DNA of 42,292 nt from Pyrinomonadaceae bacterium (GTDB lineage Bacteria > Acidobacteriota > Blastocatellia > Pyrinomonadales > Pyrinomonadaceae), in assembly GCA_036281015.1 (NCBI GenBank), contig DASUPR010000210.1, forward strand, positions 1 to 42,292. The letters run 5' to 3'. The notes beneath the pieces were generated by a model. That model ran no database searches and had not been told where the DNA came from. It saw only the letters and a list, made by a program, of their open reading frames with translations. A program made the position numbers and the translations under genes. Every line of letters starts with the position of its first letter. Position 1 is the stretch's first letter. Below are positions 3,739 through 20,457 of this stretch, in pieces.

Positions 3739-3756
3739 GATGATTCTCTTCAGAAG

Positions 3757-4398
3757 TTATTTTGCGGGCTGAGGAGCAGCAGCAGGGGCGGCGCCGCCGG
3801 ACGCGCCTTTGGCGGGCTTAGGTTGATTCTGCAAGCGCTCGGATGAGACGTAGTAAGCAGTCAGATCGAAACGCGCGTCTACGGTTTTCGTTAACGACTG
3901 CTTGTCGAGCTGCTTCAGTTCGAAATTGGTGATCGAAACGATGCGCTGATAGTGGGCCAACTGTTCGAAGAACGCGCGCAGACCGGCAAAGCCGCTGACG
4001 ACGCTGACTTCGATCTTCTTGCCACTGTAGTTGTCCTGCTGAATGTCTTCCTTCGGATTGAAACGGCTAAGCACCAAACCGTTGCTCTTCGCGCGATCCT
4101 GAATTCCCTGCAGGACCATCGTCAGCTCGCGTTGTTCCGGAAGCAGTGCTTTCAGCTCCGCAAACTCTTCCTCGCGCGCTTTGTAAGCCGCTTTGAAGTT
4201 GTTCAGGTTCTGCGAAACGATTTGCGCCTGGGCATTCAACGGCCGCAACCGCTCGATCTCGGCGGTCATGGTTTTCGTCTCGGCGCGCGTGCCACTGGTG
4301 ACGAAGTAATAAAATCCGCCGTACATCAGGCCGCCGATGAACAGGAAGGCGACGAGTCGCAGGTACCAGGGAAGGCTTGGAAGCTTGCCTAATTTCAT
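3757..4398 (-). CDS. pilO: Type IV pilus biogenesis protein PilO
   Basis: 213 aa with a single N-terminal TM, a coiled coil, then the ..LPEQRELTMVLQGIQDRAKSNGLVL..ITNFELK.. pattern. Synteny with pilN and pilP. Confidence 0.8.
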   Translation of the reverse strand: MKLGKLPSLPWYLRLVAFLFIGGLMYGGFYYFVTSGTRAETKTMTAEIERLRPLNAQAQIVSQNLNNFKAAYKAREEEFAELKALLPEQRELTMVLQGIQDRAKSNGLVLSRFNPKEDIQQDNYSGKKIEVSVVSGFAGLRAFFEQLAHYQRIVSITNFELKQLDKQSLTKTVDARFDLTAYYVSSERLQNQPKPAKGASGGAAPAAAPQPAK

Positions 4399-4444
4399 CT
4401 CATTGATCCTTTGGTTTCAGTAGGTCTCCGGATGCAGTTGAAAC

Positions 4445-5146
4445 TTACTTCTTCATCGCGACCTGATTCGCCGAGGCAGGAGCGGACTGTTGCGACTGTG
4501 CTTTTGGCGTATCGAACTTCGCCTTGACTGTGAACACGACCACTTCCGGCTTCACGACGTTCGGATCGTTTGGCGCCGCCGCCGCTGCTCCCGCAGAAGA
4601 CCCGGCCTCGGTCGACTGCTTGGCAACTTCTCTTTGCGTCTCGATATTCAGGTTGCTGAACAATCCGCCGGAGAACTCCAAACTCTGTCCAAACTTCGTC
4701 ACGGAATACTCGTTCGGCGACTCGCCTTTAATCGTGACTTCGCCGTCCTTCTGTTCGATGGCGGTCAGATAAAGACCAGGCACGGCGTCGAAGCGCGCTT
4801 TAATTTCCTGAAGCACAGCGCTCGGTCCCTGCTGCGACTCACGGAGTTTCTTGATCGCATCGATACGCGCTTTGATCTCTTCGGTCTTCTTCTCGAGTTC
4901 CTTCTGCTCTTTTTGCACGGCGAGCATCTGCTGGTTGATCCGGTTCTGGTTCTCGAGTTCTTTCTGCGCCGCGGTGTAGGCCATGTTTGCACTGACGTAG
5001 TCGTAGCCCATCGCGAGGGTCATCAAACCAAACACAGTCAGCGCGAGCAGTGCTGTCTGCACACGCGGGCTGGCGACTTTGTCTTCAACCGCCGCGACAC
5101 CCTGTGGCCGATCCGTAACTGACTCGAGCAGGTTTACCTTGATCAT
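4445..5146 (-). CDS. pilN: Type IV pilus biogenesis protein PilN (fimbrial assembly)
   Basis: 233 aa. Opens with the characteristic MIKVNLL, followed by a TM helix and coiled coil. Its start overlaps the pilM stop by 4 nt (5143..5146). Confidence 0.85.
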   Translation of the reverse strand: MIKVNLLESVTDRPQGVAAVEDKVASPRVQTALLALTVFGLMTLAMGYDYVSANMAYTAAQKELENQNRINQQMLAVQKEQKELEKKTEEIKARIDAIKKLRESQQGPSAVLQEIKARFDAVPGLYLTAIEQKDGEVTIKGESPNEYSVTKFGQSLEFSGGLFSNLNIETQREVAKQSTEAGSSAGAAAAAPNDPNVVKPEVVVFTVKAKFDTPKAQSQQSAPASANQVAMKK

Positions 5147-6201
5147 GCTTCCACTCCTCTCAGCGCGAGACCGACGGCAACTGCCATCTCGGGCACGATT
5201 TCTCGCATGTAGTCCGGATCAAACTTTCTCGAATCAACTTCGATCTGCCGGAAGGGATCGAAAACCTCAACCGGGATTTCAAACTTCTGTCCCAGAAAAT
5301 CAGCCAAACCCGGAAGCTTGGAACCACCGCCGGCGAGCAGGATCTTCTGTATACCCGCTTCGTCCTGAGCAGTGGCGCGATAGAAGTCGACGGTCTTCTT
5401 AACTTCGAGCGCGAGCGCTTCGGAAACCGTTTCAATGATTGGTTGGATCGGGCGGGGCTCGGTGCCTTCTGGCAACGGCATACCACGCTTCACGCTCTCG
5501 GCCTGTTCAAAACTGAGACCGAGCTCTCGTTGCAGCAGACTGGTGTACTGGCTGCCGCCAACTGAAGCGTCGCGCGCGAACACCGATCGGGTGCCGTTCA
5601 GGATGTTGATGTTCATCGTGGCCGCGCCGATATTCAGCAGCGCGACGATCTCGCCGGGACGCGGGCGATAGTTGATCTCGTAGCAGTTCTGCAACGCGAA
5701 GGCGTCGACGTCGATGATCACCGGCTGCTTGCCGGCAAGTTGAATCGCCTGCTTCACGTTTGCGATCTTGTCGCTCTTGCAAGCGGCCATGAGCACGTGC
5801 AACGCGTCTTCAGAGCGGCTCGTCAACTCGTAATCGAGATTCACGTCGGCGATGTCGAAAGGGATGTGCTCTTCGGCGTGCCAGCTAAACGACTCCTGCA
5901 ACTCTTCCGAGCTCATTTGCGGCAACACGATGTTCTTTACAATCACGGAGTGACCACTGACGCCGGCACAAACGCGAGTGGTGCGAATCTGGTGTTCGCT
6001 GAAAATTTGCGAGATCACGTTGGACACGTTGTTGAGCTCCATGATCTGGCCGTCAACAATCGTGTCGGTCTGAAGGTTTTCGAAGCCGAGGTTCAGGAGC
6101 TGCAAGCTTGATCCTTTCTTGCCGAGCTCTACTGCCTTGACGGAGCTGGAGCCGATGTCGAGACCGACGAGGTTCTTTTTGCCGGAGCCTTTTTTGAACA
6201 T
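5143..6201 (-). CDS. pilM: Type IV pilus assembly ATPase-fold protein PilM
   Basis: 352 aa. Actin-like fold motif LVGLDIGSSSVKAVEL near the N-terminus and ILLAGGGSKLPGL near the C-terminus. First gene of the pilMNOPQ order. Confidence 0.92.
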   Translation of the reverse strand: MFKKGSGKKNLVGLDIGSSSVKAVELGKKGSSLQLLNLGFENLQTDTIVDGQIMELNNVSNVISQIFSEHQIRTTRVCAGVSGHSVIVKNIVLPQMSSEELQESFSWHAEEHIPFDIADVNLDYELTSRSEDALHVLMAACKSDKIANVKQAIQLAGKQPVIIDVDAFALQNCYEINYRPRPGEIVALLNIGAATMNINILNGTRSVFARDASVGGSQYTSLLQRELGLSFEQAESVKRGMPLPEGTEPRPIQPIIETVSEALALEVKKTVDFYRATAQDEAGIQKILLAGGGSKLPGLADFLGQKFEIPVEVFDPFRQIEVDSRKFDPDYMREIVPEMAVAVGLALRGVEA

Positions 6202-6641
6202 GATTAGTTATTCCTCACCGCGGCAGCGCGAAGTTTGTTTTGCTGACGAAGGCGAACGCGGGCCTTTCGCGCGCGGGGCAGTTGTCGTTTGACGACTTTC
6301 GTCGTGGCTGTAGAGTTCATTCGGATCAAGTTAATGGTCCCTTTGTCGGTAAGGTTGCTCATATCGGGCGGGCGTCAACACAAACGGCTGCGGAGATCAG
6401 GTAGGGCAGGAATTTAAGCTCATCGCGGGACTGACCGCTGTTGAAACCAGGTAGGCACCCAATCAACGGCAAGCGCTGGCCGTCGACCTGAGTGAGAGTA
6501 CCTTAATGGGCCAAACAGTGTCAATCCTTATTTTTCACTGTTTAACTTGTTGCAGACAAGAGACTAAGAGCTGAACCGCGGCGCGTGCAAAGGCTCGTTT
6601 CTGGAACAAAAGCGTAGTTGTTCCAACTTTTAGCGCGCGGT

Positions 6642-7403
6642 TTACTGGTCTTTGACTTTGGCCGTTTTGGCGGGAATGCCGACTACGATGTGGTTTGGTT
6701 CAACGTCGCGTGTGGCCACGGCGTTGGTCCCGATCATTGCGTTATCGCCGACCTGTATTCCGGCCAAAACGGTGGAGTGGTAGGTCAGACGGACGCCGTT
6801 GCCGATGCGCGTCTCGGGTGTTGAGACTTTGTGAATGTCGTAGATGTCGTGACTGTGGGAATAGATATTAACGTAGTCTGAGATCGAGACGTCGTTACCG
6901 ATCTCGATTCCGCCGCGGTCGTCAAGCAGCACATAACGATGCACTACGACGTTGTCGCCGATCGAGAGGTTGTAGCCAAACGACCACTCGACGAAGTGCC
7001 AGCACTTGAAGTCACTGCCGACGCGGCGAAAGATTAGTGGCGCGAGCATCTGGCGGAAACGGTGACCGAGCAGCGCGTTTTGTCCGAGCGGCGAACGATC
7101 AAACATCTGCCAGAGCCAGATCATTGGCTTGCGCTCGAGATAGAGCTTCGAGTCGATGTCGGTGTAGTACTCGGGCTCGGTGGTGATGTTGCGCGGGTCG
7201 AACGTGTGGTAAGTCGCGCGTGCTGCGAACGGGAGATCTGTCGGATCGACCCGTGTAGCTCCGTAATAAATTTGGAACAGTGTGTCGCGAACTACGTCAT
7301 TGGGATCGGTGGTTCCGTCGGTTAGCGACTTTTCGAGTTCAGTTAGAAAACTGTCGTAGTCCCCTTCGGCCAGGGCCTGTGCAGACAATTTGCGGTAAGT
7401 CAT
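6642..7403 (-). CDS. Left-handed beta-helix (hexapeptide-repeat) acyl/acetyltransferase
   Basis: The C-terminal half shows LbH hexapeptide periodicity (IGDNVVVHRYV..IEIGNDVSISDYV..IGNGVRLTYHSTV..VGDNAMIGTNAV..VVGIPAK). The track ORF begins at a TTG (7430). I prefer the ATG at 7403 (MTYRKL..), but the start is uncertain. Confidence 0.7.
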   Translation of the reverse strand: MTYRKLSAQALAEGDYDSFLTELEKSLTDGTTDPNDVVRDTLFQIYYGATRVDPTDLPFAARATYHTFDPRNITTEPEYYTDIDSKLYLERKPMIWLWQMFDRSPLGQNALLGHRFRQMLAPLIFRRVGSDFKCWHFVEWSFGYNLSIGDNVVVHRYVLLDDRGGIEIGNDVSISDYVNIYSHSHDIYDIHKVSTPETRIGNGVRLTYHSTVLAGIQVGDNAMIGTNAVATRDVEPNHIVVGIPAKTAKVKDQ

Positions 7404-7478
7404 AAGCGGAGTCGAGTCAAAGTAACACAAGTATTCCCCAGCTTGCCAGTCGTTGATCGGGAAGCTAGGATTCGCCCA

Positions 7479-9191
7479 ATGAAGTTTCTTCGTATCGCTC
7501 TGGTTCTGGTCCCGCTCGGAATCCTGATAGCGGCGGCCGGGCTATGGTTCAACCTTCCTGTCAAAACCGATCTCGCAGATTACGCGCCTGCGGATGCAAT
7601 CGTCTACGTGGAATTCAACAGTCTGGCGGATGTGGCGCGCACCATTCAGCACACAAACGCGTGGAAGGCTGCGGCGCCGATCACAGGCAACGGGCCGGAT
7701 GGTGACAATCGACTGCTCATCACCGCGGCTCGCGCCGGACTGGCACCCGTCGAGAGCGTGCTGTTTGCGCGCACTCAGGTTGCGCTGGTTGTGGTTGGCT
7801 TGAGCGCTTCGGAGCAGGAAGACACGTTGAAGGTCAGACCGGACATCGCGCTGATTGCGGAAACGCATACGTCTCCGTGGCGTACGAAACCGGTGATGAT
7901 CGACAGCGTGAAACGTCTGGCGCAGTTTGCGTATGGCGCGTCGTCGTGTATTGGACCAACTGGCGATGGCGATCGTTTTGAATGTTCGATACCGGGAAGC
8001 GATCGGAAGCTGGTCGGCGCGATTAACGGCACCACTGTCATTCTGGCGAATAGCGACAACGCGTTGAAGAGTTGTTTGGAGGTGCGCGCCGGCACGCGTC
8101 CGAGCATTGGCACGGATGCTGAGTTTAAGCAGATGCGCTCGAGCGTTGCGACGGGTGAGTCACTTGGCTTTGGTTACATCTCGGCGGCCAATTCGGCGAA
8201 GCTGTTTTCGTGGACTGCTCCGCTGCTGATGGGCATGGCGCCGGGCGATCAGCAGTTGCAACAACTACTCACGTACAGTGCCGCGAAGATTCTGCGCGGC
8301 ATTGCGTGGACGTCGGTGCCGTTAAATGGTGGTATCGAAGATCGTTTTCTGTTTTCGCTCGAGCCGGGAGTTGTGGAGCGGTTGCAGCCGGCCTTTCAAA
8401 CGTCTCAGCGTGATGAGAACTTTTGGAAGCTCGTGCCGGGAAATTTTGAGTCGTTGACGATCTATCGCAGCCGCGAACCGGCGAAGGCGTGGAACTCGCT
8501 TGATGCGGCGGTGGCGTTCAAGCTCGATGCGTTGCCGGCGGTGTTGTTTGGTTCGGTGTTGCAGTCGAGTCTGTCGGTCTATGGCATCAACAATCCGAAA
8601 GAAGCGCTCGCGGCGTTGAGTCCGCCGTTGTTGACGATGAAGCCGTCGACGGGTGTTGACGGATCGGTGTTGGTGGCGCGCGTCAGCGATGAAGCAGCTC
8701 TGCGCAACTCGCTGCAGCAAATAACAGGAAAAGCGACACCGCCGCAGGTTCTTGAGGGGCTGCAAGCCGATCCGGATCCGGCGCAGGAATACTCCGCAGT
8801 GTTTGTGGATGGTTATGTGCTGCTGGGTAAGACTGAAAACATGCGGCAGTGCCTGGCTGAGTTGCGCAAGAGTCAGGCGGCGATCACGGAAGAGAAGAAG
8901 AACGTGCAGGACTCGGCGCGTGAGAACACGGCGGCGATCGTTACTTACGCGAACGATGAAGCGCGTCTGACGAATTTCATCTCGACGCTGTTGCTTATTC
9001 AGGGTAGGCGTTTGTCAGGGGATGAGATTTCGCGGTTGCAGAATACGTTGGGCCGTTCGACTTTTGCGGAAACCGAGACGCGCTTGAGCTCCGCCGGCAT
9101 CGAGCGCAAGACACGTTCTGCGTTTGGGCAGTTCAGCACGTTCATCTCGCTGCTAAGTCCCAGTCAGCCTAATTTCGCGCCTAACCAGTGA
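7479..9191 (+). CDS. Hypothetical membrane-anchored protein
   Basis: Long ORF. The preferred ATG at 7479 gives MKFLRIALVLVPLGILIAAAGLWF (N-terminal TM anchor). I recognise no catalytic motif. Confidence 0.6.
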   Translation: MKFLRIALVLVPLGILIAAAGLWFNLPVKTDLADYAPADAIVYVEFNSLADVARTIQHTNAWKAAAPITGNGPDGDNRLLITAARAGLAPVESVLFARTQVALVVVGLSASEQEDTLKVRPDIALIAETHTSPWRTKPVMIDSVKRLAQFAYGASSCIGPTGDGDRFECSIPGSDRKLVGAINGTTVILANSDNALKSCLEVRAGTRPSIGTDAEFKQMRSSVATGESLGFGYISAANSAKLFSWTAPLLMGMAPGDQQLQQLLTYSAAKILRGIAWTSVPLNGGIEDRFLFSLEPGVVERLQPAFQTSQRDENFWKLVPGNFESLTIYRSREPAKAWNSLDAAVAFKLDALPAVLFGSVLQSSLSVYGINNPKEALAALSPPLLTMKPSTGVDGSVLVARVSDEAALRNSLQQITGKATPPQVLEGLQADPDPAQEYSAVFVDGYVLLGKTENMRQCLAELRKSQAAITEEKKNVQDSARENTAAIVTYANDEARLTNFISTLLLIQGRRLSGDEISRLQNTLGRSTFAETETRLSSAGIERKTRSAFGQFSTFISLLSPSQPNFAPNQ

Positions 9192-9832
9192 ACAACGTAT
9201 CCCAATGCCCTTCACTGCTGCTCGGCACGCGCAACCCGGGAAAGGTGCGTGAGATTGCTGGTATTCTCGGCGACGTTCCGTGGGAGATTCGATCGTTGCA
9301 GGAGTTTGAAAGTATCGAAGTGCCGGCTGAGACCGGCGCGACGTACGCTAACAACGCAATCATCAAAGCGCAATTCTATGCACGCGCAACTGGTCTTTGC
9401 GCGCTTGCTGATGATTCGGGGTTGGAAGTTGAAGCACTCGGTGGCGCACCCGGAGTCCTTTCGGCGCGTTATGCCGGAGCGGGTGCTTCCGACGCGGATC
9501 GACGAGCCTTACTTCTCTCTGAACTTGCTAACGTACCCGCCGAGCAACGCCGCGCACGATTTGTTTGCGCGGTTGCAATCGCACTACCCAACGAAACCAT
9601 CCTTAATCTTTCAGAAGGCACCTGCACCGGAAACATCATCTTCGATCCACGCGGATCGGGCGGCTTCGGCTACGATCCCCTATTCATCCCCGACGGCTTC
9701 AATCAATCGTTCGCCGAACTCGCGGACACCATCAAAAACCAACTCAGCCACCGCGCCCGTGCGCTTCTCAAAACACGCGAGTTCCTCCTATCTCACCGCC
9801 GCCCACTTGCCCCATCAACCCGCCCTGCTTGA
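9188..9832 (+). CDS. rdgB: RdgB/HAM1-family non-canonical purine NTP pyrophosphatase
   Basis: Motifs LLLGTRNPGKVREI, ..ALADDSGLEVEALGGAPGV.SARY.., ..GGFGYDPLF.P...SFAEL....KN..SHR. The GTG start overlaps the upstream stop (GTGA). Confidence 0.88.
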   Translation: MNNVSQCPSLLLGTRNPGKVREIAGILGDVPWEIRSLQEFESIEVPAETGATYANNAIIKAQFYARATGLCALADDSGLEVEALGGAPGVLSARYAGAGASDADRRALLLSELANVPAEQRRARFVCAVAIALPNETILNLSEGTCTGNIIFDPRGSGGFGYDPLFIPDGFNQSFAELADTIKNQLSHRARALLKTREFLLSHRRPLAPSTRPA

Positions 9833-9888
9833 CCATCCACAACGCGGCTCTTAGAATGCCTCAGCTTTTCACTCTATTGAAAACTCAA

Positions 9889-9968
<80 letters not shown>

Positions 9969-10058
9969 ATAAAGTCAATAGTTTACGGCTGTCGTCATTG
10001 GCGGCCGTATTTCATTTGTGGGCCAAATTTGGCGCATGGTTGTCTCCTCACATAACTG

Positions 10059-10964
10059 TCAGTAGGTGAAGACTGGTGTTAACCACCATTTTTGACTCCG
10101 ACTATCAGCCTCAGACATCTGTCTAATGCCTCGTTCGGTTTCTGCCATGTATCGTCCGCTATGTTTGGCGCGCAGTTTGTAAGAGCAGTCTTTTTGGAGC
10201 GCCAAGGCCCATTTCTGATTTTCTCCGTTTTGAAACTCCCACTGATGGATCTTCGCCTGTTCCGCGGTTGAGTTGCCTTCCACGTCTATGCACTGACCCG
10301 TATGCGAGGACACGATGGCGTAGTATCGTTTCTCGACTTGATGGCAGTACCAGATCTCCTGTTCCTCACCGGAATAATTACCCACCTCGAGTAGTTCGCC
10401 ATTCTTGTGTGGTACGCCCAATGCTCGAAGAACGGTAAGTGTTTTGACATTGATAAGATGGAATGCTTGAGCACTGGCTGGTGGGCCCACCGGCTTGGCC
10501 TTGCTCTTGAGTCTCGGCTCCAGGTCAGGCCACCACTTCTCGAAACTCCGACGAATCTGTTGGCCAGACAGGACGATTTCACTTGCGGCGTTCAATGACC
10601 TTATCAATTCCTGCGTCCCCTTTTCATCAGCCTTAGCAGCTTGGAAAAACCACAACGGTTGCGGCAGATCCTCGGGCTCCATGTCTATCAGGTAGGGACA
10701 AACGGCTGCGTTTTCTAGAACCTTGGAAAGAGCTCCTGCCTCGAACAATACCCACGGTTTGATACAGTTGTCTTTTGTTAAGCAAAGAATACCGAAGTTG
10801 CTCTTTTCAAGCTCCGAGCGAAGGACGTGGACCGACTCCTTTCCTTTCTCGATATCGCTTGAAATAAATGGGACCACCGAGTGAATCACGTCCGGAAGCC
10901 AATCTTTTAACGCTTCAGCAACTTCTTTGCTTCTCGGACCAGACCAGCCTATAAACACTTTCAT
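10059..10964 (-). CDS. TIR domain protein fused to a C-terminal ricin-B-type (beta-trefoil) lectin domain
   Basis: The N-terminus (MKVFIGWSGPRSKEVAEAL..DWLP..PFISSDIEKG...ILCLTKDNCIKPWVLFEAGAL) matches the bacterial TIR layout, including the W-x-x-E catalytic-Glu motif. The C-terminal ~130 aa has QxW-type repeats (IHQWEF, NQKWAL, SQKWWL). GAGGAGG lies 5 nt upstream of the ATG at 10964. Confidence 0.75.
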   Translation of the reverse strand: MKVFIGWSGPRSKEVAEALKDWLPDVIHSVVPFISSDIEKGKESVHVLRSELEKSNFGILCLTKDNCIKPWVLFEAGALSKVLENAAVCPYLIDMEPEDLPQPLWFFQAAKADEKGTQELIRSLNAASEIVLSGQQIRRSFEKWWPDLEPRLKSKAKPVGPPASAQAFHLINVKTLTVLRALGVPHKNGELLEVGNYSGEEQEIWYCHQVEKRYYAIVSSHTGQCIDVEGNSTAEQAKIHQWEFQNGENQKWALALQKDCSYKLRAKHSGRYMAETERGIRQMSEADSRSQKWWLTPVFTY

Positions 10965-11018
10965 CACAACCTCCTCATCATTTGTTGGGCCTCCGAACTA
11001 AGAAATCTCGCCGCAGGT

Positions 11019-13964
11019 TCATCGTCTCCTAGCCACCCTCCGGAACTTGGCTATTCGGCCCTCCTTTTTCAAAATGGCACCCAACGTTTCATTTATTTCC
11101 TTTGCTGTTTCCTCTTCTGTTTTTTTTATATTGTCAGAATTAAGCTCAGCAATACGTCGCCGAACTTCTGCATCAATATTGGTTGCACGGCAGCTTCTGG
11201 CATCCTCAGGTTCAGAAATAAGGTGATATAGGTATTCGTTTAGCAACTCCTGACTGTACCGCTTCACGGTGGTCCAGCGTTGGTGATAAGCCGCTTTTGA
11301 AAAACTAGAACCGTACACACCAATACCTGTCTTCAGAAACTTCTCAAACGAGGATTTGGAGGTGCGGGCTTTGAGCTGAGGCGACAACCAACGGCATAAC
11401 GATAAGATTGCCAGGTACGGCCACTTCGCAGTTTGTTGGGCAATCATCCGATGGCATTCCTGCGCTTCCTTGTTACTGAGACGCGCCTTTTTTAATTTTT
11501 CATCCAACTCGCCAATCGCAATTGCCATACGACTCATGAAGTCCGGATAGACCACTGGTATCGACGCATCAATTCTGCCCTTTCTAATCAATGCAGAATC
11601 GATGTTCTCCACATAGTTTGTTGCCAGGACAAAGCAGAGTTCCTGCCGCGGGCAAGCGCCGCGCAGATCAGCTAATCGATTCAACATTGCAGGGACCACC
11701 AAATCCATGAATCGGGGACGCTCGCCGTCGAGATTTCGTTGACGTAAGAGGTCATCGATCTCATCAAAGAAAATGGTGACTGCTCGAACACCGGTTATAA
11801 GATCGAAGATTGCGCGGGCCTCTGAGTCAAGACGATCTTCGCCCATACGAGTAAAATCAGCCGGAGTAATTCGTATGAGCCGGTTTTCTCGTGGTCCCCA
11901 CCGACTACCGAACTTCCACATTTCAGCAGACAGCGCTTCGGCTAACTTGGTCTTGGACGAGCCGGGTGGTCCATGCAGCACGAGAGAATACTCCGCAGCT
12001 GAATGCGCGTTCTTTGCTCGATAAGTCATCTGCTCCAGCCGGCGATGGAGACGCCTGCTGTGCTCGGCTCCCAGATCAACCGGATCTATTTCTCGTAGTG
12101 GTTTATCTATAGAGGCAACAGAAAAGCGCTTCTTACAGAGTTCCCAGAGCCGATACTCGACCAGATCACGGATTTGTAGTAATGCGTTGATCGAATAAGC
12201 AGTGGTGCCGAAGTGAATTGTGCGGCGATCTCTCAGCCGCTCCGAGGCCCAACCGACATACTCACGCGACAGAGCTTTACTTGCATCAGACTCAGGGGCA
12301 TTAGTAGCTTGTAATTTTATTTGGGTGCGCTCTAACCAATCGACGAAATTGAAGAACTCTTTATCTGCGTCCTTAACTCCAGGAAACTGTTCTATCGCGC
12401 TAGTTAGAGTGCCGACTATGTCGGAGGTAGCGGCCCAAATGCCAAATGCATGATCGGGAGAATAAAAAGGCTTGCCTGACCGCCAGCTTCCATCCTTACG
12501 CGCTCCGGCAATCGCTTTGGTTACCGCGTCAGAAACCTGAAGCGACGTGGACATCAGGTTCCAACCGACCGCGACTGCAATGGCGCTAACCAACTCACTC
12601 GGATCGAATTCAGTAAAGTTTTGCGCGCTAGCATGAGCAATCTCGCGATCTACGACGTTTCGACACCAGAGTGCAGCGGGTAGAACCGGCTTGTTCAAGA
12701 CATCTTTAACTTTTCTGTTTGCGGAAGCGAGTTCTCTCAGCGCTTTGTTAATACGCCGCTGAAGTCTTGCGGGACCAGCTAATCCCTTGACAGGGAGATC
12801 CGGGCAAATTTTGCAGGCGGCCTTAAGCTCCCCTAGAGCATTCTCGCAATATCCAATACTTTCGTGCGCCGCGTCGGCCAGGTATTTCCAGTAATCGCTG
12901 TCGCCAGTGTGTTCCTTCGCGAACCGTAACATCAGTGGCCTTTTGTTGAGCGAATCGTCCAGCTTGGCCCTGTCTCCGGAGCGAAATGTGTTTCTTTCGT
13001 TGGTCCTGAGTGGTTCGAGTATGTTGGTCTTAATGCGCTCTACAACGGCACTTGCATCTTCGAGAACTTGCTTGGAAGTATCTCTAATTCGTTTGAGCGC
13101 AACCTCAAGAGATCCAAGGATCTTGTCGTAAGTGGCCCTAGGATCGTCAGTTGTTGGTAACTTTTGAATCGCTCTGGCACAGTTCTGAAAAGCCTTTTGA
13201 TCGATGGATAGCTGAGATAGATGTGAGAGATTCGCGCATAGATCGTCAACTTCAATATTGAATAACCAACGGTGCTTTGGATTGTTTCGATCGCGATTTG
13301 CTTGAAGTTCGGCTAGCTTGGCGAGATTGCGTGCGACGTCATCGTAAAGCCGGGTGCGCTCCTCGATAATTCTTTGCAAATCTCTAATAGGCAGCAGGCA
13401 TTTCGCTGTCACATAAGCAGTAACCTCCCAGGGTTCTATGCGGGCACCAACCGTTAATTGACTGGGGAAGCGGCGGCATAACGGCCAGATGATGGAGAAG
13501 AAGGCCAGAAAACCTATTCCGCTGTGGGCGTTCCTTTCACCAGCGTTCAGCAGAATGCGAAAAACTTGTGAGGCCGTCAAAGGATTTAGACCACCAAAGG
13601 TCTTACTATCAAGGAGTCGAGCGCATTGGTCGAACCCAAGACGCTTTGGCACATACCTTCCCGCGAGCTCTCTACGGACCTCTTTGAGTTGCCCGATCGA
13701 TGCGTTATTAAGCCACGAAAAGCGGCGTCGGAAACGCCACACCTTTTGTAAGGTGGCGCAGCAGACTGCCTGCGTCAGACGGCTGTCTTCCTCTATTGTT
13801 TCGAGTTCCGGCGAGAACCAGGTCGGAATACTTCCATGCTCCGCGATCGAGATCAAACTCTTGACAGGTCCTTCAACGATCTTGTCGATCTGTCTTATGC
13901 GGGCCAGGTAGAGCGATGTCTCTTCGTCGAGATTCGTTGTGGGAGTCGGTATATTCTGTGACAT
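11019..13964 (-). CDS. Large (981 aa) protein: ~650-aa uncharacterised N-terminal region plus one classical-clade AAA+ ATPase module and a helical tail
   Basis: Walker A GPPGSSKT (11949..11972), Walker B IFFDEIDD (11751..11774), and second region of homology VLATNYVENIDSALIRKGRID. I moved the start to the ATG at 13964 (MSQNIPT..) because AAGGAGG sits 7 nt upstream; the track's 14081 start has no such site. Confidence 0.8.
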   Translation of the reverse strand: MSQNIPTPTTNLDEETSLYLARIRQIDKIVEGPVKSLISIAEHGSIPTWFSPELETIEEDSRLTQAVCCATLQKVWRFRRRFSWLNNASIGQLKEVRRELAGRYVPKRLGFDQCARLLDSKTFGGLNPLTASQVFRILLNAGERNAHSGIGFLAFFSIIWPLCRRFPSQLTVGARIEPWEVTAYVTAKCLLPIRDLQRIIEERTRLYDDVARNLAKLAELQANRDRNNPKHRWLFNIEVDDLCANLSHLSQLSIDQKAFQNCARAIQKLPTTDDPRATYDKILGSLEVALKRIRDTSKQVLEDASAVVERIKTNILEPLRTNERNTFRSGDRAKLDDSLNKRPLMLRFAKEHTGDSDYWKYLADAAHESIGYCENALGELKAACKICPDLPVKGLAGPARLQRRINKALRELASANRKVKDVLNKPVLPAALWCRNVVDREIAHASAQNFTEFDPSELVSAIAVAVGWNLMSTSLQVSDAVTKAIAGARKDGSWRSGKPFYSPDHAFGIWAATSDIVGTLTSAIEQFPGVKDADKEFFNFVDWLERTQIKLQATNAPESDASKALSREYVGWASERLRDRRTIHFGTTAYSINALLQIRDLVEYRLWELCKKRFSVASIDKPLREIDPVDLGAEHSRRLHRRLEQMTYRAKNAHSAAEYSLVLHGPPGSSKTKLAEALSAEMWKFGSRWGPRENRLIRITPADFTRMGEDRLDSEARAIFDLITGVRAVTIFFDEIDDLLRQRNLDGERPRFMDLVVPAMLNRLADLRGACPRQELCFVLATNYVENIDSALIRKGRIDASIPVVYPDFMSRMAIAIGELDEKLKKARLSNKEAQECHRMIAQQTAKWPYLAILSLCRWLSPQLKARTSKSSFEKFLKTGIGVYGSSFSKAAYHQRWTTVKRYSQELLNEYLYHLISEPEDARSCRATNIDAEVRRRIAELNSDNIKKTEEETAKEINETLGAILKKEGRIAKFRRVARRR

Positions 13965-14363
13965 TCTTGCTCCTCCTTGAGTGGGAGAATTCAAGCGAGT
14001 GTGCAGGTAAGCAGAGGCTCGTGAGAGTACAGACTGTCGTCTGAACGCGGGGACAATATTCTTGTCTTTAAGAAAAGTCAACGCCGAATTGACTTGTGTA
14101 AAACCCCAAGTTGAAATGTCACCCGATTGCGCAAAGTAAAAATCTCACCTACTTGCAGGATACAAAGCTCACCGCGGCGTTCGTTGGCCATGTGCGTCTG
14201 CAACAATCTGTTATTATTTCTTCCATTGAGCGTGTCCCAGGGAAGCATTGCGACTAGATGTGCTGAGGAGAATGTAAATTGAAACCTAACAGCAGGGTTC
14301 ACCCCATCGTCGTGTGACCAATTTGTGGACACAATTTTTTCGACTCGCAAAGCGCGATGCTTA

Positions 14364-14396
14364 TTGACCTGACCCGGGTAAGACGTTATCTTACCC
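14364..14396 (+). promoter_or_regulatory. Putative vapBC promoter with an overlapping palindromic operator; the transcript may be leaderless
   Basis: TTGACC (14364..14369), a 17-nt spacer, then TATCTT (14387..14392), with the vapB ATG 7 nt further on and no SD. A perfect inverted repeat (GGGTAAGA at 14376..14383, TCTTACCC at 14389..14396) spans the spacer and -10. Confidence 0.45.
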
Positions 14397-14399
14397 GTC

Positions 14400-14651
14400 A
14401 TGAGAACTACCGTTTCAACAAAGGGTCAGATCATCCTTCCGGCTGAGATTCGGCGTGAGGATGACATCAAATCCGGACAGGAGTTTGAGATCGAACGGAT
14501 CGATCGCGGTGAATACCTCCTCAAGCGAACGACAAAACCGCGAAATAAAGGGCTTGTAAAACTCTTACTTTCATGCCCCGTGAAGGATTGGTTCCAACCA
14601 CTAGAGCGCACCGAAACCACTGATGACATTAAGCTGCCTAAGCTCGGATGA
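14400..14651 (+). CDS. vapB: AbrB/MazE/SpoVT-family antitoxin (VapB-like)
   Basis: 83 aa. MRTTVSTKGQIILPAEIRRE is the swapped-hairpin AbrB-type motif. Overlaps the PIN gene by 4 nt. Confidence 0.85.
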   Translation: MRTTVSTKGQIILPAEIRREDDIKSGQEFEIERIDRGEYLLKRTTKPRNKGLVKLLLSCPVKDWFQPLERTETTDDIKLPKLG

Positions 14652-15055
14652 TCTACCTTGTTGATGCAAACGTGCTTAGTGAGCCGACGAAACAGGCGGC
14701 CGACAGCAGGGTTGTCATGTGGCTCAATGCAAACGAATCCAATCTGATCGTTGACTCGATAATAATTGGCGAACTGCGAATCGGCATTCTTGCGCTACCG
14801 CGCGGACGCAAGCGTGATCGGCTCGAACAATGGTACGCAACGGTGGTTGAAACGATAGATTGCATTCCATGGGATGCAATGATAAGCCAACGATGGGCAG
14901 CTCTGGTTGTGGAGTTGAAACGAAAGGGAGAGACCGTACCACTGCTTGATGGAATGATTGCCGCAACCGCTCTTCAACATGACCTGATCGTTGCCACACG
15001 TAACACTCGCGACTTTCAAAAAACAGGCGTGAAAACGTTGAATCCTTTTGAGTGA
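14648..15055 (+). CDS. vapC: PIN-domain ribonuclease toxin VapC
   Basis: 135 aa. MIYLVDANVL (first acidic residue), ..SIIIGELRIG.., ..DGMIAATAL.., ..LIVATRNTRDF.. give the typical VapC layout. Confidence 0.88.
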   Translation: MIYLVDANVLSEPTKQAADSRVVMWLNANESNLIVDSIIIGELRIGILALPRGRKRDRLEQWYATVVETIDCIPWDAMISQRWAALVVELKRKGETVPLLDGMIAATALQHDLIVATRNTRDFQKTGVKTLNPFE

Positions 15056-15096
15056 TGAAATAGCCTGGTCTTAAAACTCGTCCGTGTTGTGTTGCG

Positions 15097-15117
15097 TCGA
15101 ACCCTCTCGCCCCGACC
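15097..15117 (+). repeat. Direct repeat copy 2 (attR-like): displaced 3' fragment of tRNA-Pro
   Basis: TCGAACCCTCTCGCCCCGACC matches 20 of 21 positions of tRNA-Pro 9947..9967. Weaker resemblance extends upstream (AGCCTGGT at about 15063 versus the D-loop AGCCTGGT). No foldable tRNA remains. Confidence 0.75.
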
Positions 15118-15339
15118 GATTAGAGTCTCCTGCGACACCAATCTCCACTAGCCTCCTCCACGAAACAACGCCGCCTTATTGACTCCGCGCTTCGTTTTGT
15201 AATAAGTATACGCACCTCGCTTTCCATCAAGCCGGCCGCATAGACGGTGATCTCGTGATCCGATGTTCAATAAGCCGTCTTTTGACTCACGGGGTCTCAT
15301 ACGAATTCAAATCGCGCGACTCACTAAGGAGAGAAATAA

Positions 15340-15642
15340 ATGGACTCTACCCACCGTGAAAAAGAGACCTTTCAGTACGAGGACTTGCTGATTTGTTATG
15401 AGCGAGTGGAGCCATTATCCATGGGAGGGGGCGGCGGCGGTGGTGGTGGCGGCCCAATTTCCCCGAAAGGCGGCGGCAAGGGCGGTGGCAAAGGCGGAGG
15501 CGGCGGCAAGGGCGGAGGTGGTGGCAAGGGCGGAGGTGGTGGCAAGGGCGGAGGTGGTGGCAAAGGCGGAGGTGGTGGCAAGGGAGGCGGTGGTGGCAAG
15601 GGAGGCGACGGCCCAATCAGTACTATCTCCATCAGATCGTAA
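15340..15642 (+). CDS. Gly/Lys-repeat peptide; candidate RiPP precursor (leader-like N-terminus plus a G10..(G3K)2(G5K)6 core)
   Basis: AAGGAG lies 8 nt upstream of the ATG. Sequence: MDSTHREKETFQYEDLLICYERVEPLSM-G10-PISPK-GGGK-GGGK-(GGGGGK)x6-GGDGPISTISIRS. Co-directional with the YcaO gene and 36 nt upstream of it. Confidence 0.6.
   Translation: MDSTHREKETFQYEDLLICYERVEPLSMGGGGGGGGGGPISPKGGGKGGGKGGGGGKGGGGGKGGGGGKGGGGGKGGGGGKGGGGGKGGDGPISTISIRS
15487..15606 (+). repeat. 18-bp tandem repeat (about 6.7 copies), in frame, encoding GKGGGG units
   Basis: The units at 15505..15522, 15523..15540 and 15541..15558 are identical (GGCAAGGGCGGAGGTGGT). Flanking units differ by 1-4 nt. Confidence 0.95.
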
Positions 15643-15678
15643 CCGCGACGATTAGCCCGTGGCCCCCGAGAACAGCGC

Positions 15679-17040
15679 ATGCCAGATCATCAGGTAAGGT
15701 CTTTATCGGACCTCTTCAATCGACCTCCTTTTTACTTAGCAGGCGCTTTTCATATTCATCCGAAGATTTCTTCTGTCTTACGACGAATTATTCGGGTTCC
15801 TCACCGCTATGCGTACGTTTATTCGTGCTCGGTTACGGATGAACAGTTGTCGGCGCTGCAACCGAAAGCGGGATTTGAGAGCGTCCTCGAGGGACAAGGC
15901 TGTTCGATAGAAGGTCCTTTGGAAGCGACTTTGATCAGCGTCTACGAAGCGACCGAGCGTCTCTTCAGCCTCCATGTCGACACCGCTGCACTTGTCAGCG
16001 GTTCATTCGTCGATCTCCAACCTTCTGCCGTTCATCCGGGAGAGTTCATATTGCCGCGCACATGGGAGTACGAACAGTGTTCCTACCCTTATGTTCGTTA
16101 CCGCGATACGTTGAAACTGCACTGGCTTCCCTGCTACCAAATTACAAAAGACGAGTTGATTCCGCGCTTAATCCCTGCCAGCCTGGCAGTGACGGGATAT
16201 TCGTTGCAACATGCGGCTGAACGATTTGTTCCGATCTTATCCACAGGTTTAGCTGCAGGCACTCGACTGGCCCAAACGATCTTGAGAGGCATTTATGAAG
16301 TTGTAGAACGTGATGCGTTCATGATTACCTGGCTCAACAGACTTTCATGTCGACGCTTGCAAGCTCAGTCAACCTCTCTGCCCGTTGGAGATTCATTGAG
16401 CCAGCTCTTCGAAGACGGGTTCTCAGTTGATTTTGTTGACCTTACAACCGATCTGGGAATTCCCGTTATCCTGACCGTTATTGAGCATCGTGTTCCGGAG
16501 CTTAAACCTAACGGCTCTAAGATCTTCGGACTGGGTTGCCACCTCAATCCGGAACGAGCACTAGTGAAGTCTTACATTGAAGCCCTACGCTTATTGCTCA
16601 ACTACTACGAGTTTGACGAAGACGATGAATTGAATGTGCGGAGAGTTGATCTTTACTCCGAGAATCGGTTTTTTGACGAGAGTTATTTTCAAAAGACCGA
16701 CTTCCTGAACGAATCGGAAGAGTTTGTGGAGCTCGAGCAAATGTCTGCAGATCGCGCTGCCGACGATTATGAGAGTGAGTTGCGCGCTTGCCTTACTGCT
16801 TTGAATGGTAAAGGAGCAGATCTCTTTTTCGCCGACTTCACTCCAGAGGAACTGCGTGATGCGTCTTATTCCTTAACGCGGGTGTTCATCTCAAAAATGC
16901 AACCACATCTTTATGAGCACGATTTTTGGAGGCTGGACAATCCGCGCATTACGGCTGCGCCAGTGGCAATGGGATACCGTCAGGTTCCTCTTAATGAGAA
17001 GGATCTCAATCTCTTGCCGAACCCTTTTGCACTCCGTTGA
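15679..17040 (+). CDS. YcaO-domain protein (ATP-dependent backbone amide-activating enzyme)
   Basis: 453 aa. Motifs ..GQGCSIEGPLEATLISVYEATERL.. and ..LSTGLAAGTRLAQTILRGIYEVVERDAFMITW.. match the YcaO core pattern. The Pro-containing C-terminus (..LLPNPFALR) resembles the PxPxP tail of active YcaOs. No obvious SD. Confidence 0.8.
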   Translation: MPDHQVRSLSDLFNRPPFYLAGAFHIHPKISSVLRRIIRVPHRYAYVYSCSVTDEQLSALQPKAGFESVLEGQGCSIEGPLEATLISVYEATERLFSLHVDTAALVSGSFVDLQPSAVHPGEFILPRTWEYEQCSYPYVRYRDTLKLHWLPCYQITKDELIPRLIPASLAVTGYSLQHAAERFVPILSTGLAAGTRLAQTILRGIYEVVERDAFMITWLNRLSCRRLQAQSTSLPVGDSLSQLFEDGFSVDFVDLTTDLGIPVILTVIEHRVPELKPNGSKIFGLGCHLNPERALVKSYIEALRLLLNYYEFDEDDELNVRRVDLYSENRFFDESYFQKTDFLNESEEFVELEQMSADRAADDYESELRACLTALNGKGADLFFADFTPEELRDASYSLTRVFISKMQPHLYEHDFWRLDNPRITAAPVAMGYRQVPLNEKDLNLLPNPFALR

Positions 17041-17048
17041 GAATTCAA

Positions 17049-17870
17049 ATGGCCGATCGTTTTCATCGAGAAGGACGAACACTGCAAGGTCGCGTCGCAC
17101 TGGTGACCGGTAGCGTCGGTGATGGAATAGGCCGCAGCACGGCACTCGCACTCGCTAACCTGGGAGCTGATGTCGCACTTAACTACGGCACTGGCCGCGC
17201 ACAGGAAGAGGTCGAGTCCAACGGCAAATGCGTGCAGGCGGCGATCGAGGAAATGGGATCGCGTTCCGTGCTTATCCGCGCTAATACCGGAGATGAACAA
17301 GAAGTCATCAGTCTCTTTCAACAAATACGGAAGGATTTAGGAAGCGTCGACATCCTCGTTAATAACGCCGGCAGCGTGTGGTTGGAACAAGACTTCGCCG
17401 ACATCTCAGCCGAGAGATGGGAACGAACGATTGCCGCGGAACTAAATGGCGCCTTCTACTGTATGCGCGAGGCTTTGCCCGCAATGAGGGAAAAAAGGTG
17501 GGGGCGCATCATCAATATTGTCGTTGATCCTACTTCACTTAACCTTCTTATAAATGCCCAGTATGGGCACGTTCTCGACAAATACCCACATGCCTTCGCT
17601 GTCGGCAAGGCGGCGAGAAAATCTTTGACCCACACTCTCGCCTTTGCCGAGTTAAAAAACAAGATCACTATAAATAATATCCTCCCAGGCATTATCGAAG
17701 ACATTAGCCTTGATGAAGCAATCCGTGACGCCACTACTGACCCCGACACTAGAGTCGCTACCCGACCATCAGATGTTGCGCGAGTTATTGCCTTCCTGTG
17801 CCTGGAGGAAGGCGGCGTTATTACCGATAGTGACATAGTGATACCGGGTAACCTCTATTCGCGTCTCTAG
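17049..17870 (+). CDS. Short-chain dehydrogenase/reductase (SDR) family protein, atypical active site
   Basis: Rossmann motif ALVTGSVGDGIGRSTALALANLGADV and NNAG are present. Where S...YxxxK is expected the sequence reads IINIVVD ... FAVGK. The ATG at 17049 is preferred over the TTG at 17037. Confidence 0.7.
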   Translation: MADRFHREGRTLQGRVALVTGSVGDGIGRSTALALANLGADVALNYGTGRAQEEVESNGKCVQAAIEEMGSRSVLIRANTGDEQEVISLFQQIRKDLGSVDILVNNAGSVWLEQDFADISAERWERTIAAELNGAFYCMREALPAMREKRWGRIINIVVDPTSLNLLINAQYGHVLDKYPHAFAVGKAARKSLTHTLAFAELKNKITINNILPGIIEDISLDEAIRDATTDPDTRVATRPSDVARVIAFLCLEEGGVITDSDIVIPGNLYSRL

Positions 17871-17906
17871 GACACCTGAGTCAGGTCGGCAAGGAACAGC
17901 AGCAAC

Positions 17907-18989
17907 ATGGGACTATCACTGCCAGTTCTTCAAGATCCAAAGAAGAAGTACTCGCGCTGTCCCGGCAGCACGCTTTGTCCGTCATGCCCGCTCTTTGTCG
18001 AAAATGAAGGCCCATGCTCCGGATGCACCAATAGCTACCGCGAACGTTGTTTACAGGGCCGTTGTTATTCCCGCTGCAACCGATGCGGCGGCGGATTGCA
18101 TGCGGTCGTGCCCGCGTCTTGTGGTCGTTCACCACTGCGTGATGAATGGGCCAAGCTAATCCTGCCGCCGCTTAAACGTTATCGTCCGGCGCCTGTAGAC
18201 ATCTCGACTCCGTTGATTCCGGTAATCTATTGCCAGAAGGACGCTCGGCATATTCCACGGAAATTTCCACACATTGACGCCTGGGCCATACCTGTCCACA
18301 AGGCTATGAACTTGAAAGGAAGATTTCGTTCGGCAGACATGAAGGATTATCTGGGACTGATGCCCGGTCAGAAACTGATTCTATCAACTGCCGGGCCGGA
18401 TGATTTCATGGAGTTGCTTTGGGAGAAAGGTGATTCGTTTGACTATCGGAAGCATGGCTTCGATTACTGGTTTCCCGCCCACTTTTCAGTCTATGACAAC
18501 GATAGTAAGTTCTATCAGTTCTTTAATGCGCGGCGTCAGCAGATTCACGCTCGCAAGTGCAAGAGTCAGTTTGTGTGGTTTCGACTCGGCGAACACATTC
18601 CCGTCAGTTGGCTTGGGCCCATTCGAAACTGTCCGTCAGTATTGATCTCGTGCCAGCAGATGTACCAAAAGTTCAATAAGGAGTTATTAGCTCGAGAGAT
18701 GTCAATTGCCGACAATCTGTTCCCCTTGACGACAGACTTTTTTCTGCTGGGGTCAGGCTACGGTATCCCCATTCGTGACGGCCGCAGAGTTCACGAGATC
18801 CATTCACGCTGGATAGTCGGGGCCCTCAAGGGATATGACATAAAACATGTTCCTCATCCACGACTAAGTCGACGGCAACTTCTTTCGCGAAATCTACGAG
18901 AACTTTACCTGGCAGTTTCCAAGCGGCGAGTAAAGGATTCCAGTAGCGGCGGGAAGCAGCGTGGTGAGAGAACCAGGCAAGTGGGATAA
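17907..18989 (+). CDS. Cys-rich protein of unknown function
   Basis: 360 aa. The N-terminal ~60 aa hold 13 Cys (CPGSTLCPSCP..CSGC..C..C..CNRC..). The remainder has no motif I recognise. Same strand as the SDR gene, with short gaps on both sides. Confidence 0.6.
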   Translation: MGLSLPVLQDPKKKYSRCPGSTLCPSCPLFVENEGPCSGCTNSYRERCLQGRCYSRCNRCGGGLHAVVPASCGRSPLRDEWAKLILPPLKRYRPAPVDISTPLIPVIYCQKDARHIPRKFPHIDAWAIPVHKAMNLKGRFRSADMKDYLGLMPGQKLILSTAGPDDFMELLWEKGDSFDYRKHGFDYWFPAHFSVYDNDSKFYQFFNARRQQIHARKCKSQFVWFRLGEHIPVSWLGPIRNCPSVLISCQQMYQKFNKELLAREMSIADNLFPLTTDFFLLGSGYGIPIRDGRRVHEIHSRWIVGALKGYDIKHVPHPRLSRRQLLSRNLRELYLAVSKRRVKDSSSGGKQRGERTRQVG

Positions 18990-19010
18990 ATCGATCTTTG
19001 GAGGTGAGGC

Positions 19011-19268
19011 ATGAAGTGTGTGGCGTGCGGAAGTACCGCGCTTGTCGAAGGGACGTTGATGGATATTTCAAGTGGATTCAAGCCGAAGGAGTATTCCGAT
19101 TTGAAAAGTATGCTCGGCATTGGCACGCGCGAAGTCCGCGCCTATGGCTGCATCCACTGCCAGCACTTGCAACTCGCCGTCAGCTTTACCGAGAAGGACT
19201 TACAGCGTTACCAGCAGTTTGAAGGCGAGCAACCGGGTGTACTGGAACGAATAAACTCAGAGCCGTGA
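19011..19268 (+). CDS. Small zinc-ribbon-like protein
   Basis: 85 aa. MKCVACGS...GCIHCQH gives a CxxC...CxxC arrangement. A strong GGAGGTGA lies 4 nt upstream of the ATG. Confidence 0.6.
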   Translation: MKCVACGSTALVEGTLMDISSGFKPKEYSDLKSMLGIGTREVRAYGCIHCQHLQLAVSFTEKDLQRYQQFEGEQPGVLERINSEP

Positions 19269-19491
19269 GAGTTTGAGCCGGCCCTGGGATTAGTATTGTT
19301 TGAACATCTTTTGGCCTGGACCGGGTGCAGTTGTCCTCACCGGACCAAAAGAGCACCCAAAAACGCGTCGAACCCCCAAAAAACCTAGCGGAAATGCTGG
19401 TTTTGTTGAAGACTTTGCCGCTTGAGTGTGATATACCAATGTCCGACGTGCTTTACAATTCTAGTTCTCGTTGGAGGTGTCACACCAGACT

Positions 19492-19806
19492 ATGGCGACC
19501 AAAGCCGCTGCAGGCAAGAAGCGCATGACCCAATCGGAAGTTGTCAACTACTTCTCTGAATCTACCGGAATGAAGCGAGCGCAAGTGAAGGAGTTTTTTG
19601 AAGAGTTGTGCTCACTCGCGGCCCGTGAAGTTAAATCAAACGGCGAATTTGTTCTCCCCGGCTTCGGAAAACTTGTGAAATCAGAGCGCAAGGCCCGGGA
19701 AGGTCGAAACCCAGCGACCGGCGAAACCATCCAGATTCCTGCGAAAACAACGTTGAAGTTCCGTGTCGGCAAGGGCATGAAAGATACCGTGCTGCCAAAA
19801 AAGTGA
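19492..19806 (+). CDS. hup: HU-family nucleoid-associated DNA-binding protein with a short Lys/Ala N-terminal extension
   Basis: MTQSEVVNYFSE..GMKRAQVKEFFEEL......G.FVLPGFGKL....RKAREGRNPATGETIQIPAKTTLKFRVGK is the classic HU/IHF fold signature. The ATG at 19492 is preferred over the TTG at 19471; the ATG at 19525 is also possible. Confidence 0.85.
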   Translation: MATKAAAGKKRMTQSEVVNYFSESTGMKRAQVKEFFEELCSLAAREVKSNGEFVLPGFGKLVKSERKAREGRNPATGETIQIPAKTTLKFRVGKGMKDTVLPKK

Positions 19807-19946
19807 AGTCCCGGCACTATTATTTTTCAGCAAACGGCGCCGCCCCTTACCTTTTCCGGGAATTCGGGCGGCGTCTTTGTCCGTAAACCTCCCAATCAAC
19901 CCAAAACCTCAAGAAAACGAGCGTTTCTGCGTCCCTTAAAAATTTC

Positions 19947-19975
19947 TGGACGTAGCGACGTGTCTCCAGTATAAT
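19947..19975 (+). promoter_or_regulatory. Putative sigma-70-type promoter
   Basis: TGGACG (19947..19952), a 17-nt spacer, then a perfect TATAAT (19970..19975). This implies a ~170-nt leader before the GTG at 20154. Confidence 0.4.
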
Positions 19976-20153
19976 TTCGCGTTTCGCTGAACACCCCTGC
20001 GGCAAGCGTCTTAAGCAGCCTTTTGTTTTTGGGGTTAACTCCCCAGAATCTAAAGCTTTGTGTGGGGGGAGGGCTGCATCCTAGAGGGTAGCGGTAGCAT
20101 CTATAGTTTATACATTTGAAACGCAGATTCTAATTGGAGGAGTTGAGGCAATC

Positions 20154-20399: not shown

Positions 20400-20426
20400 G
20401 CGCTTTCTTCCTGGACTTCTTAAGAA

Positions 20427-20457
20427 AGAGATCGCCCCGTTCGGGCGATCTCTTTTC
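20427..20457 (+). terminator. Rho-independent terminator
   Basis: Perfect 11-bp stem AGAGATCGCCC / GGGCGATCTCT, 5-nt loop (CGTTC), then TTTT. Confidence 0.85.

Follow-up and report, generated by a model that had tools for sequence, protein, structure and literature searches.

Within a 42,292-nt stretch of Pyrinomonadaceae DNA (contig DASUPR010000210.1 of assembly GCA_036281015.1, analysed whole and hereafter called the window), a gene fusing a TIR domain to a ricin-type beta-trefoil lectin lies directly downstream of a gene for a 981-aa AAA+ protein, and both share a small islet with a vapBC toxin-antitoxin pair. Our tentative preference, which we put slightly short of probable, is that these are separable modules that share a mobile islet, namely a self-sufficient TIR-lectin sensor-effector, an orphan AAA+ protein and vapBC; for the islet genes we infer a role in defence. 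The adjacency of the two large genes is lineage-specific and carries no signature of an obligate two-gene system. A sequence-only reading of this DNA had proposed that the pair constitutes a single new anti-phage system. The domains, motifs and islet context on which it built, and the absence of a PADLOC assignment, all stood up, while conserved linkage did not; because homologues of the two genes are mostly unlinked elsewhere, which that reading had itself named as grounds for giving it up, the claim of a conserved system is largely refuted. Coordinates below are those of the window unless a locus is named, and protein residues are counted from the ATG at 10964 (TIR-ricin) and the ATG at 13964 (AAA+).

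The TIR-lectin and AAA+ genes are linked in one lineage only

The genomic surroundings of about 45 AAA+ family loci were collected from genomes, metagenomes and exact-protein look-ups. A TIR-ricin gene was found in none of them, either by tblastn or with a hidden Markov model (HMM) of the subfamily, and a TIR start was absent from the 214-nt tail that follows the AAA+ orthologue of 79% identity. Viewed from the other partner, no AAA+ gene occurred within 6-8 kb of TIR-ricin orthologues at 65, 63, 56 and 37% identity (5 loci, representing 4 independent contexts); several of these solitary orthologues stand amid housekeeping genes, and one is preceded by a spacer of about 330 nt. The AAA+ genes have neighbours of many kinds (GcvT, CheA, peptidases, TonB receptors, a Ser/Thr kinase, an ankyrin protein and glycosyltransferases), and in relaxed HMM searches about 43 of the 45 loci lacked any TIR-like or NDT-like neighbour, with no cryptic ones found. 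The pair recurs solely in the lineage of the window, where the TIR-lectin proteins are at least 86% identical and the site is the same rdgB-proximal one. Linkage of both homologues in diverse genomes was not observed.

A gene of 315-316 aa without a Pfam match was seen directly after, and convergent to, TIR-ricin in the 65% orthologues (L075 8924-9874 and L076 2881-3828). Its N-terminal 130 aa weakly match PADLOC models of type II methyltransferases (E-value (E) 4e-10). A similar gene, judged by size and position only, occurs in the 86% relative (the 6305-nt contig with P0114), and it is absent from the window.

A TIR domain joined to an R-type lectin

The TIR-ricin open reading frame (ORF) spans 10059..10967 if read from a GTG; more likely, translation begins at the ATG at 10964, which follows GAGGAGG at a distance of 5 nt, and the resulting length of 301 aa agrees with the homologues and with the public gene model. 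The N-terminal domain narrowly passes the Pfam TIR_2 model (29.9 bits, cut-off 28) and matches the PADLOC TIR model PDLC03016 ("TIR-TM") at E 6.6e-54 over aa 2-158, which covers model positions 1-159 of 293 only and so falls short of a full-length hit. The domain contains the motif PWVLFEAG, whose Glu (E76) is invariant in 18/18 homologues that are 32-86% identical. Among solved structures, sequence matches were confined to plant TIR chains (7XOZ, 7CRB and SNC1; E 5e-4, distant), and E76 is matched in the alignment by the WCLDEL Glu of 7XOZ and 7CRB, labelled by their depositors as an ADP-ribosyl cyclase/cyclic ADP-ribose hydrolase and a nicotinamide adenine dinucleotide (NAD+) hydrolase, respectively. 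As judged from these residues and relatives, the TIR domain most likely cleaves NAD+.

The C-terminal half scores 99.5 bits against Pfam RicinB_lectin_2 (cut-off 25.6), in 3 stretches, and shows the QxW motifs NQKW and SQKW together with a degenerate first repeat. The full sugar-site pattern is confined to the middle repeat, in which D228, V229, W243, N250, Q251 and W253 are invariant. With its three-fold repeat, its QxW motifs and its match to a curated model, this domain has the marks of an R-type (CBM13) beta-trefoil lectin; it resembles CBM13-type lectins, the best match being ThreeFoil 3PG0 (E 2.3e-27), and the conserved pattern suggests that the trefoil binds a ligand at one sugar-type site.

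This TIR subfamily is found on mobile elements. It was detected in at least 96 viral or proviral loci of IMG/VR (L096-L175 among them) at 30-46% identity over the TIR domain, in proteins with a median length of 278 aa and diverse non-TIR C-terminal halves. In the 80 of these loci that were retrieved, neither this AAA+ gene nor a ricin domain occurred within 6 kb. Plasmid members match PDLC03016 over positions 1-280, and on a 4.7-kb Serratia plasmid the full-length "TIR-TM" match is the sole cargo beyond the replication and mobilisation genes.

Under the separable-modules reading, the TIR-ricin protein would be a self-contained sensor-effector: its TIR domain would cleave NAD+, and its trefoil would turn the TIR on by sensing a ligand or by clustering. 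Since no ThsA-like receiver gene is adjacent, NAD+ depletion and growth arrest would be a likelier outcome than signalling.

A rare family of classical-clade AAA+ proteins

The AAA+ gene starts with the ATG at 13964, 7 nt after AAGGAGG. Its product contains a single AAA module (Pfam AAA PF00004, 64.4 bits, aa 662-803), in which Walker A K671, Walker B D734/E735, sensor-1 N783 and the arginines R794/R797 of the second region of homology do not vary across 86 homologues. The protein finds its best matches in PDB and NCBIfam among CDC48/p97, AFG2, VAT, FtsH and PAN, and pore loop 1 is atypical (DFTRxGE). The invariant catalytic residues and the relatives in the CDC48/FtsH/PAN group confirm, as far as sequence can, that the protein is an active ring-forming ATPase of the classical clade. 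Only 88 near-full-length homologues were recovered among 5.8 billion proteins, and the family is rare, since its N-terminal 645 aa found 152 representative clusters among 1.84 billion. AlphaFold modelled the full-length protein with a mean predicted local distance difference test (pLDDT) of 90.5 and a predicted template modelling score (pTM) of 0.91, and aa 1-645 with values of 91.1 and 0.92. A fold search with the full model returned AAA modules only, and the all-helical model of aa 1-645 had no fold match in PDB or BFVD at E <= 0.001. No member of the family was found in IMG/VR viral contigs. In the reading that we prefer, this protein would be a ring ATPase of a rare orphan family, usually without a conserved partner.

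Longer homologues were inspected for fused effector domains; the inserts proved helical or of low complexity, with the exception of one subgroup. In 8-9 representative clusters, about one tenth of the family, the whole AAA+ protein is fused to CBM48-GH13-DUF3459 (TreZ/GlgB-like) in chains of 1,470-1,590 aa, an enigmatic connection of alpha-glucan chemistry with an AAA+ ring of the classical clade.

Genes of the AAA+ family were also noted 0.2-2.5 kb from tRNA genes (Lys, Asp, Val and Ala) at L084 4782-7946 and at L003, L019 and L080; around L003, L080 and L084, no tRNA-derived att-like repeats were found.

The genes lie in a probable tRNA-integrated islet with att-like borders

The 3' end of a tRNA-Pro gene is repeated once in the window (Table 1). 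A pattern search allowing at most 2 mismatches returned only these two copies, and 0 in 100 shuffled sequences. The repeat pair encloses exactly TIR-ricin, AAA+, vapB and vapC, 5.1 kb in all; the G+C fraction of this segment (9971-15096) is 0.498 against 0.57 in the flanks, and it is uniform (0.495-0.502) across all three modules. By base composition and repeats, the segment looks like an islet integrated at the tRNA-Pro 3' end and since decayed or mobilised in trans; because no integrase gene lies within it, it would be a remnant or depend on an integrase acting in trans. All three modules plausibly came in as one unit. The vap genes, a small antitoxin gene of AbrB/MazE type that overlaps a PIN toxin gene, identify a VapBC type II toxin-antitoxin locus, and this would be an ordinary pair of its kind. 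The segment that follows, up to tRNA-His (15121-20914), also has a lowered G+C fraction (0.519) and is a unit separate from the islet. The sequence-only reading was accurate on these descriptive points: two minus-strand ORFs (51 nt apart when the TIR-ricin ORF is read from its GTG), a TIR domain that retains its catalytic Glu, a beta-trefoil lectin with QxW repeats, a classical-clade AAA+ protein, and a tRNA-flanked, AT-rich islet with vapBC were all recovered.

Table 1. Features of the islet and its surroundings in the window, and two gene arrangements found with AAA+ relatives (positions preceded by a locus label refer to that locus)
Feature	Position	Strand	Remarks
tRNA-Pro (TGG)	9892..9968	+	ARAGORN; probable integration target of the islet
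Left 24-nt direct repeat, attL-like	9947..9970	+	Last 22 nt of tRNA-Pro plus 2 nt
TIR + ricin-type beta-trefoil lectin gene, 301 aa	10059..10964	-	TIR at about aa 1-158, trefoil at about aa 170-300
Intergenic spacer, 54 nt	10965..11018	-	Holds the GAGGAGG ribosome-binding site of the TIR-ricin gene
AAA+ gene, 981 aa	11019..13964	-	Helical N-terminal aa 1-645, AAA at about aa 650-830, helical C-terminal part
Sigma-70-like promoter match, TTGACT-17 nt-TATTGT	14053..14081	-	About 90 nt upstream of the AAA+ start; consensus match only
vapB-type antitoxin, AbrB/MazE fold	14400..14651	+	Pfam MazE_antitoxin; NCBIfam AbrB-family model
vapC PIN-domain toxin	14648..15055	+	Pfam PIN; NCBIfam VapC; overlaps vapB by 4 nt
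Right repeat copy, attR-like	15097..15120	+	22/24 identical to the left copy; 41 nt past the vapC stop
tRNA-His	20915-20991
AAA+-CBM48-GH13 fusions	L023 4966-9876; L026 2-4417		P0263-P0265, P0267, P0269, P0270, P0276, P0285
AAA-DUF4406-457-aa trio	L089 5167-9749 (Burkholderia gladioli BSR3 plasmid bgla_1p); L091, L093, L176-L179		AAA 730-850 aa

A further minus-strand ORF (14078-14401, 107 aa) occupies the interval from the promoter region of the AAA+ gene to vapB; it has no family match, overlaps the vapB start by 2 nt and is probably not a gene.

The islet also bears on a non-immune reading, which we regard as improbable, in which the two genes would act in stress physiology or in a carbohydrate-related role, the lectin-TIR as a glycan-responsive enzyme processing NAD+ or nucleotides and the AAA+ protein as a remodeller tied to alpha-glucan or trehalose metabolism. 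The CBM48-GH13-DUF3459 fusions are consistent with it, as are the many distant AAA+ members that lie amid housekeeping genes, the glycosyltransferase or GlgA-like genes near two AAA+ members, and the housekeeping surroundings of some TIR-ricin orthologues. It fits poorly with the window itself, where the genes sit in an islet with att-like borders and foreign G+C content that holds a toxin-antitoxin pair and no glycan-metabolism gene, with a TIR subfamily typical of plasmids and proviruses, and with the close relatives of the AAA+ gene, which adjoin SIR2, TPR-CHAT, FGE-sulfatase, IS110 and antitoxin-like genes.

AAA+ relatives beside N-glycosidase-type genes

The main rival to separable modules is a facultative two-gene module, a serious possibility against which we nevertheless lean, in which the AAA+ and TIR-lectin proteins would cooperate in this lineage and either could exist alone. 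The AAA+ ring might keep the effector off, load it or switch it on in response to a trigger, or take active assemblies apart, much as TRIP13 resets HORMA in type III CBASS, and the lectin might sense a glycan or dock the effector. A number of observations favour such cooperation and count against independent modules. The layout in the window is operon-like: the two genes are co-oriented and 54 nt apart from the ATG (51 from the GTG), a sequence scan of the 54-nt spacer revealed neither a terminator-like nor a promoter-like site, and the two large genes are probably co-transcribed. The pair is also kept in the 99% and 86% Pyrinomonadaceae contigs with readable gene order. At locus L009, a gene not homologous to TIR-ricin begins 13 nt downstream of the AAA+ orthologue (62% identical), and its 298-aa product joins a domain resembling carbohydrate-binding modules (CBM) to an NDT/Rcl-like N-glycosidase domain. 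The CBM part matches DUF6250 above cut-off and a levanase CBM at E 0.003; the N-glycosidase part matches DNPH1 at E ~0.06-0.1 and a PADLOC TIR effector model at E 1.5e-7, and carries the motif NVYYEAGFA. That two independent genes of this CBM plus N-glycosidase design should each directly follow an orthologous AAA+ gene is not easily put down to chance. Elsewhere in the family, a 70% AAA+ orthologue adjoins a SIR2_2 gene, and 4 kb separate a TIR_2 gene from the family member at L021, which is about 40% identical.

A sister clade of the AAA+ family points the same way. Its relationship to the window protein is strong (hhalign probability 99.95%, E 6.6e-38 over window aa 420-900, which comprise the pre-AAA domain, the AAA module and the C-terminal region), and a DUF4406 (NDT-like) gene follows the AAA gene directly in 7/7 loci. 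Together with a gene for a 457-aa protein, these form a conserved trio on 3 plasmids and 4 proviral contigs (Table 1), the plasmids being conjugative and proteobacterial, DUF4406 and the 457-aa protein being a single ORF in 3/7. The 457-aa protein ends in a TSHxADVVRKAGxPA motif, which we take to resemble PEP-utilising enzymes. Against PADLOC models, the proteins of the trio gave weak matches to the IetA/TRIP13 ATPase core or none, and the trio may be an undescribed mobile-element system. In a Rosetta-stone comparison, the 457-aa protein was rejected as a homologue of the N-terminal extension of the AAA+ protein (hhalign probability 0.5%).

The L009 gene, the SIR2_2 and TIR_2 neighbours, the DUF4406 trio and the CBM48-GH13 fusions, the last being a second tie to carbohydrate-binding modules, thus amount to a recurrent affinity of the AAA+ superfamily for small N-glycosidase-type proteins and carbohydrate-binding modules. 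The TIR and DUF4406 domains are not detectably homologous (hhalign probability 0.4%), so that the N-glycosidase theme amounts to analogy, with no conserved partner behind it. Cooperation in the window also has to be set against the five TIR-ricin loci that lack a nearby AAA+ gene and the large majority of AAA+ loci with neither a TIR-like nor an NDT-like neighbour. Moreover, defence genes cluster, so TIR and SIR2 neighbours may arise without functional coupling, and such clustering could explain part of the theme. A broader proposal, that the window pair, the trio and the L009 pair belong to an undescribed modular immune class in which an AAA+ protein (pre-AAA domain plus classical AAA module) would control an N-glycosidase-type effector (TIR, NDT/Rcl-like or DUF4406), often fused to a CBM to sense a glycan, seems to us rather unlikely.

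The L009 pair itself stands in a cluster resembling a conflict system (1181-11488), made up of an 828-aa FGE-sulfatase-domain protein, the AAA+ protein, the CBM-like plus NDT-like protein and a 993-aa TPR-CHAT (caspase-like) protein.

A neighbouring candidate RiPP cluster

Outside the islet, at 15340-17040 and on to about 18989, a 100-aa ORF consists almost wholly of Gly/Lys repeats of GGGGGK type, encoded by seven tandem units of 18 nt. The gene that starts 37 nt downstream of it encodes a cyclodehydratase of the YcaO/SagD type (Pfam YcaO, E 5.8e-54); next come a short-chain dehydrogenase gene and a 360-aa gene without a family match. These genes may form a cluster for a ribosomally synthesised and post-translationally modified peptide (RiPP) with an unusual glycine-rich precursor.

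Significance

If the modules are indeed separable, the R-type lectin would add a new type of C-terminal sensor to a bacterial TIR family that is mobile and widespread, and the AAA+ gene would represent a rare orphan family for whose N-terminal region (645 aa) no fold is known; TIR-ricin and AAA+ are each reasonable single-gene candidates for defence screens. If instead the pair cooperates facultatively, classical AAA+ rings would emerge as a new means of controlling NADase/nucleosidase effectors, and glycans as a possible signal of infection, a kind of cue that studies of bacterial immunity have hardly touched. As a lead, the AAA-DUF4406 trio holds the most promise; it is cleaner than the window pair and a more tractable place to start.

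Comparison with known systems

PADLOC assigned neither protein to a system, returning the partial TIR-TM match for the one and weak matches to the ATPase core for the other. Membership in Thoeris, IetAS, type III CBASS, RADAR and SPARTA was considered and rejected, the defining partner genes being absent. A literature search on TIR-TM, DUF4406, TIR plus ricin in anti-phage defence and AAA+/TIR conflict systems returned nothing relevant.

The PADLOC "TIR-TM" proteins have an N-terminal TIR domain clearly homologous to that of the window, and their full-length members reside on small plasmids and in proviruses. In the window protein, model positions 160-293 are replaced by the ricin-type beta-trefoil, and the small membrane-protein genes are absent from the islet. 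PDLC03016 is probably the TIR component of the 2TM-1TM-TIR system (Rousset et al. 2022).

Thoeris (ThsB plus ThsA) shares with the window a TIR protein whose non-TIR C-terminal domain is a potential infection sensor, and TIR chemistry on NAD+ is expected in both. However, a ThsA-like gene (SIR2-SLOG or Macro-TM) is absent from the islet and the neighbouring genes, the neighbour being the AAA+ gene, and the Pfam ThsB_TIR model gives no match to the window TIR domain.

The plant TIR NADases (RPP1, 7CRB; and 7XOZ), in which the WCLDEL Glu corresponds to E76, are the best solved-structure matches, yet the similarity is distant and their nucleotide-binding leucine-rich-repeat (NLR) context is absent from the window. 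Plants also possess TIR-PP2 lectin fusion proteins, in which the lectin is PP2 in place of the ricin/CBM13 type of the window.

IetAS, the TRIP13/HORMA branch of type III CBASS, and RADAR each combine a ring ATPase with an enzyme effector, and RADAR (RdrA ATPase plus RdrB deaminase) is the closest analogy for a large ATPase paired with a nucleoside-modifying enzyme. The window differs from all three, as genes for the IetS protease, a cyclase, HORMA and RdrB are absent; IetA models match only the AAA+ core or a short stretch (E 1.3e-7 and weaker; NCBIfam IteA 26.9 bits, cut-off 510), and the TRIP13 match on the core is weak (E 2.6e-5).

The trio, exemplified by bgla_1p, departs from the window in that the partner is DUF4406 and not TIR, a third gene is conserved and the AAA protein is without the N-terminal extension of about 420 aa, whereas its AAA protein is truly related to that of the window and is likewise followed, directly downstream, by a small gene of N-glycosidase type.

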